Source: Parvimonas sp.
GTDB taxonomy: Bacteria > Bacillota > Clostridia > Tissierellales > Peptoniphilaceae
Direction: 5' to 3' (one strand)
DNA length: 64,000 nt
NCBI RefSeq assembly: GCF_022770425.1
Contig: NZ_JALEHY010000013.1
A program made the position numbers and the translations under genes. Positions 5,152 through 17,014 of the stretch are shown here, piece after piece. Within the stretch, counting starts at the first letter, position 1; each line of letters opens with the position of its first letter. The notes under the pieces are model-generated. The model did not search any database and was not told where the DNA came from. It worked only from the letters and a program-made list of their open reading frames with translations.

Positions 5152-5490
5152 TGTACATTTGTAAATGATGTGAAACTAAAAATTATAAAAACTATAAAGT
5201 GTATGTTAGAATTAAGTGAGAATTAGGATTTTAGATAAAAGTCTATGAGATTTATCCATAAGAGATTAAATAGAACCATCAAATCCTTTATTCCAACGCA
5301 TAAGAGAAGCTTTAGAAATTTTATATTTTCTATAAACAAAACTAACAGAATTACTATTTTTGTATGTTTTAAGATTATGGTAACTTGTTTGAAGTAAATA
5401 AGGAATATAACATTGACTGTTCTTAATATTTTCTTGATTTTTTATATAATAGCATTCATAAAAGAGCTTTCCTTAATTTATCATACATTT
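5152..5490 (-). mobile_element. decayed IS481-like transposase remnant, copy A (N-terminal HTH part only, no DDE core)
   Basis: Minus-strand translation reads ...NSVSFVYRKYKISKASLMRWNKGFDGSI*SLMDKSHRLLSKILILT*. This shows the HTH and DKSHR(P) pattern of IS481-type transposase N-termini. About 95% identical to 9517-9590 plus 9732-9851. Confidence 0.6.
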
Positions 5491-5606: not shown

Positions 5607-6728
5607 ATGAAATTTATATATCCTAAAATACGTAATCATATACTAGTTGTTCCATTTGAAAATAAAATTTCTATAGGTAATACATTGCAATCGACTATTG
5701 AAGTAAAAGAAAATTCAGGTGTAATTAGAGAAATTTTATTTTTGTGTGATGGAACTCGAACAACAAAAGAAATTTTTTATATTGTTTTTAAAAAAGGATT
5801 TGATATTGAATAAAAAGATGTTAGTGATATTATAGATCAAATTTCTGAATATCCATATATTTTTGAAGATGGAAATGATAAAATTTTATATATTGATAAT
5901 AATCTTTTAGAAAGATATAGTAGAAATTTAAATTTTTTATCTAATTTTGATAAAAAAGGAAATAAAAAATATGATTATATAGATAAAATAATAAATTCAT
6001 GTGTTTTAGTATTAGGACTAGGAGGAGTTGGTTCTCCATTAATATATGATTTAGCTGCTTTAGGAGTTGGAAAAATTATTGCTGTTGATTTTGACTTTGT
6101 GGATATTAGTAATTTAAATAGACAAATACTATATAAAGAAAAACATGTTGGAAAAAAGAAAGTTTACTCAGCAAAAGAAACAATTAATGAATTTAATTCT
6201 AATATTGAGTTTATAGCAATTGACAAAAAAATAGACTCGTCTTTAGATGTATTGGATATTTTGGAACAATTCAAACCGGATTGTGTTATTTGTGTAGCAG
6301 ATAAACCACCAATAAAAATTTACAAATGGGTTAATGAAGCTTGTTTTATGAAGAGTATACCTTTTTTATACGGCGGGAATAGTGAGACAACGGCGTATTA
6401 TCATACTGTTATACCTAATATTTCATCTTGTTTTTTGTGCTATGAGAAAAAATTAGAAGAAAATAAAAATAAAGATGGTTATAATAAATATTTATCTATA
6501 TTAAACAATTCTTATTCTACTGAAAATAATTGTACGGCAGCATCATCATCAACTTTAGCTGCATTTATGGCGTTTGATATAGTAAGACTTATTACAGGAG
6601 CTGAAGTTCCATTGTCATTAAATAAGAGGATTCTTATTGATTATAAAACTAATATAATAGATGAAGAGTATGTTGAAAAACAGGATAATTGTGATTTGTG
6701 CTCAAATAATAATTATGATAGGAGGTGA
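5607..6728 (+). pseudogene. PqqD-like RRE domain fused to a ThiF/MoeB/E1-family adenylyltransferase; single frame interrupted by in-frame TAA at 5811-5813
   Basis: ORFs 5607-5813 and 6099-6728 share one frame, and 5814-6098 is open in that frame. N-terminus: ...VIREILFLCDGTRTTKEIFYIVFKKGFDIE*KDVSDIIDQISEYPYIFE (RRE-like). Core: RYSRNLNFL, nucleotide loop VLVLGLGGVGS, DFDFVDISNLNRQ, two CxxC pairs (CFLC, CDLC). There is no in-frame start between the stop and the Gly loop. Confidence 0.65.
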
Positions 6729-6732
6729 ATTT

Positions 6733-6816
6733 ATGAAAATAGTTATTAAACCAATTGATAATGTAGAATTGACTAAAAGAGGAGGTAGAGGAACAGCTGG
6801 AGAGTCAAGATATTAA
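6733..6816 (+). CDS. candidate precursor peptide, 27 aa (not in ORF track)
   Basis: GGAGG at 6721-6725, 7 nt before ATG 6733. MKIVIKPIDNVELTKRGGRGTAGESRY, stop TAA at 6814-6816. It lies between the two RRE-fusion genes. Confidence 0.5.
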   Translation: MKIVIKPIDNVELTKRGGRGTAGESRY

Positions 6817-6822
6817 AAATTT

Positions 6823-7962
6823 ATGAAATATATAATTAATTATGATATAATCACAATGCAAAATTTTGGTGGAAATTATATTATTAAAAATATATTAAAT
6901 GGGAAATCTCTATAAATTAATGAAGATGTATTAGATATCCTTAATTTTATGAAAAATCCATTTTTTATTGAAGAATGCATAAGTAGATTTAACTTAAAAA
7001 ATGAAGAAATGAATTTTATTATTGATGAATTATTAAGAACAGGAATGTTATCTGAATGTGAAAATAATTATATAGATGAAAAATTTTCAAAAACAGATTT
7101 TTCTTTTTTTGATTCTCAAAATATATATAAAGATAATTCTATTTGTATTCTTGGGGTACCTTATGATGGAGGAACTACAGGCGTTTCTGGATGCAAAATT
7201 GCTCCAAATACTTTAAAAAAATTTACTTCAAATTATTCTTATTTATATAATAGAATAGATAAAAAATTTTTTATCTCATACCCTAATATTGATTGTTATA
7301 ATAATCAAAATATTGTTGATCTAGGAAATATTTTAACGATTGCCGGTGAATCGTCATATGATTTACACAATAGACTTGAAATAGCATATAAAAACCATAT
7401 AAAAAATAAAGATAATAAGATAATTGTAGTTGGAGGCGATCATTCAATAACATATCCTATATTAAATTCGTTTGAAGAAGATATTATTTTTTTAAAGTTT
7501 GATGCACATTATGATGATAATTTGATATTAAACAATATTGTAAATCATTCAAATTTTATTAGAAAAATAGAAAATATAAAAAACATAAAAGAGATATATC
7601 ATATTGGAATAAGAGAACCTAGAAAGCCTGGATTAAATATAAATGGAAAAGCAATTACTTCTGATGATATTAGAAATAATAATGCAGAATTAATTTTTGA
7701 AGAATATTTATTGAATAATGCAAATTTTTATATATCTATAGATGTTGATGTTTTTGATCCATTAATTGTTCCGGCAACGGGATATACTTTACCATATGGT
7801 ATAAATTTAGGACAAATATGTAATTTAATAGATTATTTTAATAGAATAGGGAATATAATAGGAGTTGATATAGTTGAATATAATCCATTATTAGATAAGA
7901 ATGATATAACCATGTATACAGTAATGGATTTGTTAAAATATTTAATAAATATATTAACTTAA
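6823..7962 (+). pseudogene. RRE-like N-terminal domain fused to an arginase/agmatinase (ureohydrolase)-family enzyme; in-frame TAA at 6913-6915 (intact ORF 6949-7962)
   Basis: ATG 6823 and ORF 6949-7962 share a frame. N-terminus: MKYIINYDIITMQNFGGNYIIKNILNGKSL*INEDVLDILNFMKNPFFIEECISRFNLKNEEMNFIIDELLRTGMLSE. Ureohydrolase metal motifs are intact: GGDHSITYP, FDAHYDD, SIDVDVFDP. Confidence 0.65.
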
Positions 7963-7981
7963 GAATTTTTAGGAGGCAAGT

Positions 7982-8518
7982 ATGAAAGCACTTTTGGTTC
8001 TTGATTTACAAAAGGGAATAATAAGTCAAAAAAATTTTGATAATACATTGGCTAATATAAAAATATTAATAGACGACTTTAAAAAAAATAATGATATAGT
8101 AATATTAACTAAGCATATATCTAAGTTTGAAGAAAATCCACTATACATTCATGGTAAAGGGGTTGAAATTGAAGATGATTTTGTGAAATTAGCAGATTAT
8201 GTAATAGAAAAAGATAGTTGTAATCCATTTTTAAATACAGATTTGTATAATATTTTATTAAAAAACAATATAACTGATATATACATATGTGGATTTAATA
8301 CAGAATATTGTTGTCTTTTTTCTAGTATAATATCTACTGATAGAGGTTTTAAAACTGTATTTATAGAAGATGCTACAGACACAATTGGAGATGAAGATAT
8401 ATACGAGATGCCAGGATTGGATATTAGAGATTTTATAGGGTCAATTTTAAATTGGTCAGAGTTAGTTGAAGTTTTATATGTATATGAGTACTTAGAATTA
8501 AGAGATTGTAATGAATAA
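7982..8518 (+). CDS. isochorismatase-family cysteine hydrolase
   Basis: AGGAGG RBS. Asp-Lys-Cys triad context: ALLVLDLQKG, ILTKH, YICGFNTEYCC. Confidence 0.8.
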   Translation: MKALLVLDLQKGIISQKNFDNTLANIKILIDDFKKNNDIVILTKHISKFEENPLYIHGKGVEIEDDFVKLADYVIEKDSCNPFLNTDLYNILLKNNITDIYICGFNTEYCCLFSSIISTDRGFKTVFIEDATDTIGDEDIYEMPGLDIRDFIGSILNWSELVEVLYVYEYLELRDCNE

Positions 8519-8732
8519 TTTAGATTTTTAAAATCAGAAATATGATTTAAATGAATATTCAAAAGTATTGTTTTTTAATGATGTTGTTATTATTGATGAA
8601 GAAGATTCAGGGAATATATTTAGGTAGAACAGAAATTAATAAATACATATTAATTCCTAGAATAGGATTAGATATCGTATAATATCAAATTTAATATTTA
8701 ACAAATTTACAGGATTAATTTTTAGTTGTTTT

Positions 8733-9284
8733 TTGATGCTTACATTTTTTATTGGTTTATTTTTATTTAGATATAAATTTATGCCATCTTATTTTGAATA
8801 TTTTTGGCATGATTCACTTATTGTTGTACTTTTAATTTCTCCTATATTTGATTTTATAACTGGAATAACACATGAATTTTTTCATTTTTTAGCTAGTAGT
8901 AAATTTACCTATACATCATCATATTTTTCTATTGGAAGAAGGCTATTAAATGTAGTTTATCAAACAAGGATAAATAATATTTGGTTAATACCAAGAAAAA
9001 GTAGATATTTGATATATTTTTCAGGGATAATTTTAGATTTATTTATTATATGGATTACATTTTATGTTAAATATAATAGTATTATATACAGATTTTCTAG
9101 ATTTGCAATTTTATATTTAGAATTTGGAATAATATTCCAATTTAAATTTTATATGAAGACAGACATTTATTTTTTTATTAGTGATTTTTTAGGTAATCCA
9201 TCATTATATGAAGATTCTATGTCTTTTTTAAAACATATATTTAAAATTGAAAAAAATAAAAATGAATTACTATTATATATTTGA
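8733..9284 (+). CDS. polytopic membrane protein with HExxH motif (M50/site-2-protease-like or DUF3267-like putative zinc peptidase)
   Basis: GITHEFFHFLASS adjoins a hydrophobic segment, and there are several further predicted TM segments. The true 5' end is uncertain: an ATG at 8511 overlaps the upstream stop, but 8511-8732 is broken by stops. Confidence 0.55.
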   Translation: MMLTFFIGLFLFRYKFMPSYFEYFWHDSLIVVLLISPIFDFITGITHEFFHFLASSKFTYTSSYFSIGRRLLNVVYQTRINNIWLIPRKSRYLIYFSGIILDLFIIWITFYVKYNSIIYRFSRFAILYLEFGIIFQFKFYMKTDIYFFISDFLGNPSLYEDSMSFLKHIFKIEKNKNELLLYI

Positions 9285-9481
9285 TATTTATATTGTTGGC
9301 TAGTATAATAGATATGTTGTTTAGTTTGTATTATTTGATTCCGTCATTTAGATATATTTTTGCCAATATCACTGCTGGCGGTGATTTTAAAATTTATGGA
9401 ATCATAACATTATTTTTTTCTTTTATATATTATGGATTTGTATTATATGTTTTTTTAAAAGAAAAAACTAATAAGTTTTAG
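9281..9481 (+). CDS. small 2-TM membrane protein (possibly a frameshifted 3' part of the preceding gene)
   Basis: Hydrophobic 66-aa ORF with a TTG start overlapping the upstream TGA (TTGA). No clear RBS. Confidence 0.3.
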   Translation: MIFILLASIIDMLFSLYYLIPSFRYIFANITAGGDFKIYGIITLFFSFIYYGFVLYVFLKEKTNKF

Positions 9482-9516: not shown

Positions 9517-10050
9517 TGTACATTTGTAAATGATGTGAAACTAAAAATTATAAAAACTATAAAGTGTATGTTAGAATTAAGTGAGAATTAATTTTCATTA
9601 TGAAGATTGTTCCTTAAAAGGATAAATAAATCTTTCACGAGCTGCTTCAATCAAAGAAACGTTAGGATTTCTTCTAATGAGATTTTTAATCCAAAAAATT
9701 TAGGTATCAGTATGAGAATTAGTGAGAATTAGGATTTTAGATAAAGGTCTATGAGATTTATCCATAAGAGATTAAATAGAACCATCAAATATTTTATTCC
9801 AACGCATAAGAGAAGCTTTAGAAATTTTATATTTTCTACAAACAAAACTAACAGAATTACCATTTCTGTTAGTTTTAACGGTATAGTATTGAGAACAAAT
9901 GAGTAATATATCGTTGGTTGAGTTTTATATTTGTTTGATTTAGTGGTATAATATTATTCATAAGAGAGTTCCTTTATAATTAATTTGTTTGTTGTTTTAA
10001 TTATATAGGATATTCTCTTTTTTTGTACATTTGGTCTCACATCAATTGTA
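9517..10050 (-). mobile_element. decayed IS481-like element remnant, copy B (HTH plus adjoining region, at least 2 in-frame stops, DDE core missing)
   Basis: Minus-strand translation reads ...RKYKISKASLMRWNKIFDGSI*SLMDKSHRPLSKILILTNSHTDT*IFWIKNLIRRNPNVSLIEAARERFIYPFKEQSS*. Imperfect terminal inverted repeat between 9525-9541 and 10034-10050 (13/17). Confidence 0.6.
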
Positions 10051-15397: not shown

Positions 15398-17014
15398 TTG
15401 AAAAAGTCTAAATTTTATTTACCGATTGAGTTAAAAACTTCTAATGTGATTTTTCTTTGTGTTTTTTCGCTCATTGTGTATTTAATTTCACTTATTTTTC
15501 CGTATATTTTTAAATATGTGCTTGATAATGTGGAGGATATTAAGAGTGAAAAACTATATTCGTACATATTAGGTATAATTTTATTTGCCTTTTTTTCACA
15601 TGGACTAAGTTACTTATGTGATTACCTAAATCAGATTTTTTGTAACAAAACTGCTTTGAGATATCAAAAAGAAATTGTAAAAAAGATTTCTGCGATAAAT
15701 ACACCGGATTATGAAGCAATGAACAAAGCAAAGGTTTTAAATCTTTTGAATTATGATATTGCAGTGATTTATACATATATTAATTTAAAAATAGATTTGG
15801 TTGTTGATGCAATAAAGATTTTTGTTGTAGCGCTCATATTACTTAGAATTAATTATATTCTTGCAGGAATAACGTTTCTTTTAATTCCTATTTATTATCT
15901 TGGAAATTACTTTAACAAAAATAAAATGGAAAAATTAGCGAAAGAGCAAGTTTTACTTGGAGATAAGAGTTTTGAACAAGCTCAAGATGTTGTTTCAAAA
16001 AAAACAAGTATTGAACTTTTTAAGGCGTGGAAATTATTTTTTAAAAAATTTAACCGTATGTCAGAAGAGTATTGGAAAGTTACTGGGATAAAGCATAAAT
16101 TTTTAATTTTAAATATGGAATTTCCAAAGTTTATTTCAACTTTAAGTCCTTTTGTGGTTTTAATTTTGGGGGCAAGTTTTGTTCATAGGGGAGTTTTTAC
16201 GATAGGAACTTTGATTATGTTTTTACAATATGCTAAAATGATTTACACTCCGATAACATCAATTGCCAACTTAAAGGCAAATGCAAATGCTTCGATTGCA
16301 AGTTTTGAAAGAATCAGAAATTTTTTAAACTATGAAAATGAAGAAAATAATTATTCAAAACTTTTTGTAAAACAAGAAATTCCAATAGAAATTAAAAATG
16401 TTGAAATTACAAATGCTAATGGTGAATTATTGTTTAAAATAGAGGACTTTAAAATTTCTAAAAACGGTCTTTATATTTTGAAAGGAGATAACGGAACAGG
16501 TAAAACTACACTTTTAAATTTACTTGCAGGTGTTTATTCGGTAAGTCAAATTAAAGAAAAAGACGGATATTTTAGAATAGCGGAAAATCAAAAAGAGGAA
16601 ATTTCTTATTTGTATAATCCTGCAATGTTATTTAACGGAACTGTTAAAGAAAATATAGTCTTATCCGAAACGGAGAGTGAAAAACAGATTTCAAAGATGA
16701 GAAATCTTTTAAGAAGATTTAATGCAAAAGATGAGAATTATGAAGTTAAAACTACTCCTGCTAATCTTTCGCTCGGAGAACAGCAAAAATTGTTTTTGAT
16801 TAGGACTTTTATGCAAGAAAAAAATATTATTTTGCTTGATGAACCGTCAGCTAATTTAGATGTTGATTCAAAAGTTATCCTGAGGGATTTTTTAAAAGAG
16901 CAAAAAGAAAATCATATAATAATTTTGATTGCTCACGATTTACTTTATGAAAAAATTTCAGATGAAATTTATAATATAAGTAATAAAAATTTAGTTAAAA
17001 CAAAATATATTTGA
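15398..17014 (+). CDS. fused TMD-NBD ABC exporter (half transporter)
   Basis: N-terminal 6-TM-like domain. Walker A GDNGTGKTT, signature LSLGEQQK, Walker B ILLDEP. TTG start 9 nt after GGAGG. Confidence 0.8.
   Translation: MKKSKFYLPIELKTSNVIFLCVFSLIVYLISLIFPYIFKYVLDNVEDIKSEKLYSYILGIILFAFFSHGLSYLCDYLNQIFCNKTALRYQKEIVKKISAINTPDYEAMNKAKVLNLLNYDIAVIYTYINLKIDLVVDAIKIFVVALILLRINYILAGITFLLIPIYYLGNYFNKNKMEKLAKEQVLLGDKSFEQAQDVVSKKTSIELFKAWKLFFKKFNRMSEEYWKVTGIKHKFLILNMEFPKFISTLSPFVVLILGASFVHRGVFTIGTLIMFLQYAKMIYTPITSIANLKANANASIASFERIRNFLNYENEENNYSKLFVKQEIPIEIKNVEITNANGELLFKIEDFKISKNGLYILKGDNGTGKTTLLNLLAGVYSVSQIKEKDGYFRIAENQKEEISYLYNPAMLFNGTVKENIVLSETESEKQISKMRNLLRRFNAKDENYEVKTTPANLSLGEQQKLFLIRTFMQEKNIILLDEPSANLDVDSKVILRDFLKEQKENHIIILIAHDLLYEKISDEIYNISNKNLVKTKYI

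Follow-up and report, generated by a model that had tools for sequence, protein, structure and literature searches.

A nonsense-interrupted arginase gene of Parvimonas sp. and its intact relatives point to probable peptide arginases with a fused leader-recognition domain

The DNA analysed here, a stretch of 64,000 nucleotides from a Parvimonas sp. metagenome-assembled genome (MAG; RefSeq GCF_022770425.1, contig NZ_JALEHY010000013.1) and called the window below, contains an arginase-family gene at positions 6823–7962. We consider it likely that this gene is a nonsense-inactivated copy of a two-domain tailoring enzyme for peptides synthesized ribosomally and modified post-translationally (RiPPs), and that its intact relatives work by the leader-dependent mechanism proposed below. 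The original prediction for this locus, a putative peptide arginase with its own RiPP recognition element (RRE), is right on the architecture, which is real in the family, and probably right on function at the level of the family. The window copy, however, reads as a recently inactivated pseudogene in a decaying cluster, with a stop codon inside the RRE, broken partner genes and no intact fusion encoded.

Translated in a single frame, 6823–7965 gives 379 codons with one internal TAA, which is codon 31 (nt 6913–6915). The catalytic motifs, which had been described as intact, are all there: GGDHSITYP at 7432–7458, DAHYDD at 7501–7518 and SIDVDVFDP at 7735–7761. Pfam PF00491 covers residues 106–373 of the read-through protein [E = 9e-46, 157 bits (cut-off 22)]. 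H207, D227, H229, D231, D307 and D309 (the His of GGDHS, the Asp, His and Asp of DAHxD and the two Asp of DxDxxDP), which by assignment from established arginase structures we take to be the ligands of a binuclear metal site, are all found in the window protein and fall in columns that are invariant across 18–21 homologues. Uninterrupted homologues of 362–416 aa from Lagierella, Cytobacillus, Heyndrickxia coagulans, Streptococcus suis, S. himalayensis and several metagenomes span 97–100% of the read-through sequence from end to end, N-terminus included. The metal ligands, the motifs and the N-terminal segment are not a chance pattern. A full-length AlphaFold2 (AF2) model of one intact homologue, P0002 (51% identical to the window protein), with a predicted local distance difference test (pLDDT) score of 83, has the three-layer α/β/α arginase fold; the closest Foldseek matches of its catalytic domain are agmatinases (1wog, 3pzl and 7lba, E ~1e-22), and proclavaminate amidinohydrolase and guanidino-acid hydrolases are also near. 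The best NCBIfam match of the window protein is the agmatinase model TIGR01230 at 122.2 bits, under the equivalog cut-off of 174.3, and an intact orthologue, at 127 bits, stays under it too; the NCBIfam equivalog cut-offs for formimidoylglutamase (formiminoglutamase) and arginase are likewise not reached by the window protein.

The upstream segment, NGKSL followed by the stop and INEDVLDIL, is found in frame and aligns with the N-termini of the intact homologues. It belongs to a PqqD-like RRE domain at 6823–7062 (plus strand), which the TAA cuts in or just after strand β3. Pfam and NCBIfam gave no usable PqqD match, so the call of an RRE needs evidence from the fold, and this comes from P0002, which aligns throughout with the window sequence. 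In the full model of P0002, DSSP assigns strands to residues 10–15, 18–23 and 29–32 and helices to residues 34–42, 49–55 and 60–72, and a disordered linker (81–92) joins the RRE to the arginase fold. The RRE domain modelled alone with AF2 (pLDDT 92.8) has the same β3–α3 topology (β-β-β-α-α-α). Nearly all of the top 46 Foldseek matches of this model in the PDB are RREs of RiPP enzymes, the best being TigE (TM 0.85); the others include the lasso B1 proteins 6jx3 (LarB1-type) and 5v1v (TbiB1), the MccB peptide clamp, CteB, PqqD, TruD, ThcOx, SuiB, McbB, MibB and PbtF. A PDB profile search with 19 family N-termini matched TigE (8vpo, a radical-SAM enzyme) over residues 9–82, the whole domain (E = 2e-7), and more weakly the lasso RRE TbiB1 over its full length; TigE is the closest RRE by both sequence and structure. 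Two designed WD40 proteins that topped this search, Tako8 and Ika8, were rejected as artefacts of summed repeats (E ~39 per stretch). By its modelled fold the segment of ~75 N-terminal residues is a true RRE, in agreement with its first reading as a PqqD-type domain.

At the position of the stop almost all aligned homologues have Glu, and the ancestral codon is GAA. The L016 assembly (ENA; ~95% identical to the window) retains this GAA in an intact allele, P0125, which reads KSLEVNEDV across the position, and the L017 assembly (Logan SRR19212883; 98.96% identical) shares the TAA. In the same 90% cluster the arginase is damaged further: P0121 has been cut to 154 aa, and frameshifts disrupt P0124 and P0127. 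Upstream lies a gene for an RRE-bearing ThiF-like adenylyltransferase (TLAT; 5607–6728, plus strand; Pfam ThiF, E = 1.2e-45) with its own in-frame TAA at 5811–5813, found in the window assembly only, both L016 and L017 having GAA there. Both stops are GAA-to-TAA changes (G>T transversions), each within the RRE of adjacent genes. Downstream, at 8559–9481 (plus strand), tblastn with 396-aa orthologues locates the remains of an RRE-bearing HExxH intramembrane metalloprotease, a putative leader peptidase and now a pseudogene: the pieces lie in frames 3, 1, 3 and 2 with ~63 residues gone, and relative to L016 there are deletions of 2 nt, 202 nt, 12 nt and 10 nt. A 57-nt segment with a perfect 14-bp stem-loop, at 1505–1561 of L016 between the precursor and arginase genes, is deleted in the window (about 6813–6822) and in L017. 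A hairpin occurs at the same position in the intergenic sequences of intact clusters of other genera and may be an attenuator that sets the ratio of precursor to enzyme. With the arginase RRE cut, the TAA in the ThiF gene, the protease shattered and the precursor stem-loop deleted, the pathway of the Parvimonas lineage is predicted to be dead.

The ThiF and arginase genes were under purifying selection in the past, as follows from a ratio of nonsynonymous to synonymous substitution rates (dN/dS) of ~0.16 against L016. Between the window and L017, which both carry the stop, the arginase gene has 0 synonymous and 4 nonsynonymous differences, small counts that are consistent with a recent loss of constraint. 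Recoding or read-through of the TAA was rejected, because TAA is not a codon for selenocysteine or pyrrolysine, a close relative has GAA and the remaining cluster is broken. Poor assembly quality is an unlikely cause, as the flanking housekeeping reading frames are long and intact and an independent assembly has the arginase stop too; the intact genes beyond the cluster include valS, hpt and those for an iron-containing alcohol dehydrogenase (Fe-ADH), a phosphonate ABC (ATP-binding cassette) transporter, a 5′-nucleotidase, a pirin and an S8 protease. Independent damage to the cluster is seen elsewhere: a frameshift in the ThiF gene of a Lagierella MAG (L001, 210–1333), two nonsense codons in that of L016 (295–1420, with coverage of just 3.4x) and, in one H. 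coagulans genome (L002, 9699–14680), a DDE transposase gene between the pieces of a split protease gene. Such repeated inactivation of the clusters by independent lesions may mean that the product is costly or under fluctuating selection.

What is left of the arginase gene is an open reading frame (ORF) of 337 aa at 6949–7962 (plus strand), which encodes the whole ureohydrolase domain and lacks β1–β3 and helix 1 of the RRE. The locus would be a functional remnant if this product were made from the ATG at 6949 and acted, independently of a leader, on a peptide or on small guanidino compounds. The complete catalytic domain with every ligand kept speaks for this, as does the annotation of the ORF as a protein by NCBI [100% identical to P0001, MCI5996938.1/WP_293560231.1, in GenBank an ‘arginase family protein [Parvimonas sp.]’]; moreover, the adjoining isochorismatase-like gene is intact and identical in L017. 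Yet no Shine–Dalgarno-like sequence precedes the ATG at 6949, sister assemblies have decayed beyond this ORF, the strains with the shared stop differ in this gene by four changes, every one nonsynonymous, and both partner enzymes, ThiF and the protease, are destroyed. We therefore regard a functional remnant as unlikely and the inactivated copy as the better description of the window gene.

The function of the gene before its inactivation is best judged from its relatives. The order ThiF, precursor, arginase, isochorismatase-like hydrolase and HExxH protease is kept in at least seven taxa, with intact clusters in Streptococcus, Heyndrickxia, Cytobacillus, Alkalibacterium and Lagierella. In these loci the RRE-ThiF protein has 364–381 aa, the peptide 26–34 aa, the RRE-arginase 365–394 aa, the isochorismatase-like protein ~177 aa and the HExxH membrane protein 386–409 aa. 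The precursor gene always lies between those for ThiF and the arginase, the isochorismatase-like gene always directly 3′ of the arginase gene, and the precursors have the form ..VELTKRGGR(N/G)xxxxES, with VELTKRGGR kept in every one. In the window the precursor (6734–6816, plus strand; 27 aa) is intact and preceded by a strong AGGAGG ribosome-binding site; its sequence, MKIVIKPIDNVELTKRGGRGTAGESRY, is the same in L016 and L017. The corresponding peptides are MKIEIKEVDKVELTKRGGRGGSGESRM in Lagierella, MKITIKVLNDVELTKRGGRNTLNPES in H. coagulans and Cytobacillus, MVIQVKVLDEVELTKRGGRNTINPES in Alkalibacterium and MKDSKKETKKIEIKVLDSVELTKRGGRNTINPES in Streptococcus suis and S. cuniculipharyngis. 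A search of GTDB genomes with a degenerate DNA pattern for D/N-x-VELTKRGGR returned six loci; the match in L011, inside a pyrH-like gene, was discarded as a chance hit.

The partner enzymes of the arginase resemble known RiPP enzymes. An intact orthologue of the ThiF protein, 62% identical to the window copy, finds its best solved relatives in MccB (E = 2e-29) and PaaA (E = 2.5e-19); the alignment with PaaA starts within the N-terminal RRE. Orthologues of the protease weakly match the models of the daptide intramembrane metalloprotease (E = 4.5e-5) and of the YydH/LiaK epipeptide protease (E = 4.8e-4). Compared with the arginase RRE by hhalign, the N-terminus of the protease scores a probability of 93% (E = 3e-7) and that of ThiF a weaker 65%; on these matches all three large proteins appear to bear a leader-docking domain.

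For the intact relatives we propose the following mechanism. The RRE of the arginase would dock the conserved N-terminal part of the precursor (..I-x-I-K-x-[VLI]-[DN]-x-VELTKRGG..) as an additional β strand, which would place an arginine of the RGGR region at the metal site, where hydrolysis of its guanidino group would give ornithine and urea. The RRE-ThiF-like adenylyltransferase would then activate a carboxylate of the peptide with ATP, most likely that of the C-terminus, and the δ-amine of ornithine would be the obvious nucleophile to close a macrolactam. The RRE-HExxH membrane protease would finally cut the leader off, probably after Gly-Gly. Genomic context suggests the Arg-to-Orn activity of the family; the peptidyl-arginine substrate, the order of the steps and the ring are what we infer. 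TLATs are known to adenylate peptide carboxylates, with Cys, indole or imide groups as the nucleophiles that close the ring, and EnfB also accepts primary amines for amidation (PMC11256085, PMC12250964).

Several observations weigh against this interpretation. Pfam PqqD (PF05402) has no match in the window protein and matches one of the 19 family N-termini, at E = 0.12; this model misses most non-PqqD RREs (PMC7470986). For every member, the function of the RRE-arginase is proposed from sequence, fold and context, and the nearest catalytic relatives have small molecules as substrates. The scheme has no place for the isochorismatase-like hydrolase. Precursors of the Bacilli type and of the Peptoniphilaceae type differ by one residue in the spacing from RGGR to the conserved Glu-Ser, and the C-terminal residue varies (S, M or Y), and therefore the topology of the ring is not constrained. 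As to the window copy, the 337-aa ORF, with its perfect active site, might keep some leader-independent activity, and the ThiF stop unique to this MAG could be a strain-specific mutation or an assembly error.

The enzyme might also act on the peptide without simply making ornithine, either by hydrolysing an amidino or acyl-guanidine intermediate made by ThiF or, if ThiF yields a microcin C-type peptidyl-nucleotide, by serving, as would the isochorismatase-like protein, in tailoring or immunity. PF00491 members do hydrolyse many amidino substrates (proclavaminate, guanidinobutyrate, metformin), the ThiF protein is closest to MccB, and a role for the isochorismatase-like cysteine hydrolase is what the simple scheme leaves unexplained. 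The precursors, on the other hand, lack both a C-terminal Asn, which microcin C chemistry requires, and the EEN of pantocin (PMC11256085), and Arg is the sole encoded guanidino group, inside the VELTKRGGR that is invariant in all of them. These chemistries appear to us quite improbable, and ornithine formation on the peptide remains the preferred account.

The fusion is not confined to this cluster. A family profile was searched against 1.84 billion representative proteins; among the 150 top matches listed, ~135 are proteins of 365–445 aa whose matches extend from the first ~25 positions of the profile to its end, and RRE-arginase fusions make up well over 100 clusters at 50% identity. In a set of 369 proteins, the RRE profile has a match in 123 at E ≤ 1e-3, and ~40 others have an extension of similar length. 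When the catalytic domains of proteins with the long extension are compared with those of short, agmatinase-like proteins, the nearest neighbour is of the same class for 91% of the long and 96% of the short ones. The window subfamily forms a group of its own with 26 members, and the few short members that could be checked are truncated (pseudogene ORFs of the P0001 cluster and one fragment).

Other members of the family stand in other RiPP settings. In Sutcliffiella cohnii a distant RRE-arginase adjoins a YcaO protein and a LanB-type dehydratase. At L018 (501–5070) the neighbours are YcaO, a major facilitator superfamily (MFS) transporter and a LanB-type dehydratase, with the candidate precursor MKKELKVEIKKSVKKNPVPKQSKNRYTVAN; at L020 (352–4280) they are a radical SAM enzyme and a JmjC protein, and an ORF of 46 aa there is rich in Arg; and at L019 (5–3647) two ~365-aa proteins of no known function, with a candidate precursor that has the tripeptide KRC. 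P0145 (L021, 180–2705) is a single chain of 775 aa in the order RRE, ThiF, RRE, arginase. Upstream of it are a 47-aa Arg-rich candidate precursor, ending ...YMRGLHRRRA, and a terminator-like hairpin; downstream are genes for a C39 peptidase, encoded on the opposite strand, and for a GNAT acetyltransferase. The fusion argues for a functional link between ThiF and the arginase, and its locus possibly encodes a pathway to an N-acylated ornithine. The RRE-arginase architecture is no one-off, being that of a large family across several kinds of RiPP cluster.

These results bear on a more conventional view, in which the family are ordinary agmatinases or guanidino-acid hydrolases whose N-terminal winged helix is regulatory or DNA-binding and whose link to the peptide gene is coincidental. 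TIGR01230 as the top NCBIfam match and agmatinases as the best structural matches fit it, and winged helix-turn-helix domains are widespread; the 19 family N-termini do have weak Pfam matches to HTH_28, PCI and RPA_C. But the score lies below the agmatinase cut-off, the Foldseek matches of the domain are RREs of RiPP enzymes and not DNA-binding proteins, the gene order with a conserved precursor and two further RRE enzymes is strictly kept, RiPP contexts recur and include a fusion to ThiF, and the RRE-bearing catalytic domains cluster apart from the short ones. We judge a small-molecule enzyme very unlikely and prefer a RiPP tailoring enzyme. The original prediction had asked where the enzyme falls relative to agmatinases and formiminoglutamases: it scores below the equivalog cut-offs, and its catalytic domain groups with the RRE-bearing enzymes.

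KgrD, which acts in the enteropeptin (KGR) pathway of Enterococcus cecorum, is the known enzyme nearest in function; two reports describe it as a Mn-dependent PF00491 arginase that converts peptidyl-arginine to ornithine, and as the only characterised PF00491 peptide arginase (PMC12703449, PMC10028609). Compared by these descriptions, the window enzyme shares with KgrD the Pfam family and, by our proposal, a role in RiPP tailoring. As described there, KgrD belongs to a radical-SAM pathway and needs a thiomorpholine-modified Arg, whereas the window cluster has a ThiF-like partner and neither a radical SAM gene nor a KGR precursor. The main uncertainty about the novelty of the architecture is whether KgrD, known here through such descriptions, has an RRE; no Enterococcus cecorum protein is among the matches listed in a second family-profile search.

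The comparison first drawn, with OspR, was less apt. OspR, FlmR, OhkR and PbsE are peptide arginases of a different Pfam family, PF12640 (UPF0489), with different motifs (PMC12703449); in the window protein PF12640 has no match at E ≤ 1, and its motifs are not in the translation. The ureohydrolase superfamily and the binuclear metal site are common to both groups, and the conversion of Arg to Orn on RiPP precursors and use in peptide engineering are features of the OspR group. OspR-type enzymes are homodimers whose substrate recognition is described as unclear, and the term ‘RRE’ appears nowhere in the two papers on them; the window family has a discrete RRE. The small-molecule enzymes SpeB agmatinase, proclavaminate amidinohydrolase, guanidinobutyrase and formiminoglutamase are closest in catalytic sequence and fold and have the same metal ligands, but the window family adds an N-terminal extension of ~100 aa with the RRE, sits in RiPP clusters and clusters separately.

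The neighbouring ThiF gene has the architecture of the RiPP TLATs MccB, PaaA, GrcB, EnfB and IndF, an RRE joined to an E1-like adenylation domain, and the locus follows the logic of TLAT clusters, in which a TLAT is encoded beside a short precursor and a protease or transporter, and remnants of transposons flank the genes (PMC11256085). The VELTKRGGR..ES precursor fits none of the described TLAT groups (C-terminal Asn, EEN, GRC, WWIII, NWYFI, VEGR, NICxxxK, CxxxC and GxxQY), and three recent papers or reviews on ThiF-like RiPP enzymes do not mention arginase, agmatinase, ornithine or isochorismatase. TigE, CteB, SuiB, the lasso B proteins and the cyclodehydratases carry an N-terminal β3–α3 RRE on a catalytic domain, which here is a ureohydrolase. 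Each half of this combination, a peptide arginase and an RRE-fused tailoring enzyme, has precedents; the combination itself is apparently undescribed. Full-text searches of the literature found no paper describing an RRE-arginase fusion, and the main text of the RRE-Finder survey mentions none. The architecture may thus pass as new, as had been suggested, but it is not unique to this gene, being found in a large family in several kinds of RiPP cluster. A wider claim, which we find doubtful, would be that RRE-arginases, RRE-ThiF proteins and VELTKRGGR..ES precursors define a new RiPP class with an ornithine-derived side-chain-to-tail macrolactam of 8–9 residues, and that RRE-fused PF00491 arginases give TLAT, YcaO/LanB and radical-SAM pathways alike a general way to ornithine that the leader can program.

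The remaining features of the window locus touch the scheme less directly. The isochorismatase-like cysteine hydrolase gene (7982–8518, plus strand; Pfam PF00857, E = 5e-22; no differences from L017) is the cluster's only enzyme gene left intact. By eye, its Asp-Lys-Cys triad positions are there, as D8, the Lys in VIEKDSC and one Cys of EYCC, and the enzyme might still have a function of its own, immunity or detoxification for example. The C-terminal half of the precursor, the core RGGRGTAGESRY (6779–6816), loosely resembles what we take to be the RGGRVKDLPGVRY loop of ribosomal protein S12, possibly by coincidence. In two H. coagulans loci (L003, 5825–6331; L004, 4955–5461) the protease gene is directly followed by one for an extra protein of 168 aa, which has a zinc ribbon at the N-terminus and an S4 RNA-binding domain at the C-terminus (Pfam S4, E = 1.4e-7). 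This protein could serve in immunity or be related to the target, which hints that the target has to do with translation. A promoter scan of the AT-rich DNA was uninformative (52 sites against 47 expected).

The cluster is flanked by direct repeats, the left one at 5152–5382 (minus strand) and the right one at 9517–9888 (minus strand), which share a segment of 74 nt at 100% identity (5152–5225/9517–9590) and one of 168 nt at 93% (5215–5382/9721–9888), with ~130 extra nt between the two segments in the right copy. Read from translation, both repeats look like remnants of a transposase N-terminus, a helix-turn-helix region broken by in-frame stops; the minus-strand translation runs ...VSFVYRKYKISKASLMRWNKGFDGSI, a stop and SLMDKSHRLLS. 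This suggests that the cluster came as, or is embedded in, a decayed mobile element. An ABC exporter at 15398–17014 was rejected as a cluster member, since it lies past the right repeat and the phosphonate transporter operon and is not in the related loci.

Ornithine is a useful handle in peptide drugs, and the OspR-type arginases already in engineering use have no defined module for docking the substrate; with a modular RRE, a ureohydrolase would place ornithine in a leader-programmable way. The window locus is useful mainly as a pointer to the intact relatives P0002 (from L005), P0008 (from H. coagulans), P0010 (from S. suis) and P0125, and as one example of the repeated inactivation of such clusters across several assemblies. 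Beyond it, an unexplored ThiF-dependent RiPP class would occur in Streptococcus suis, in the probiotic Heyndrickxia coagulans and in oral and gut Peptoniphilaceae.

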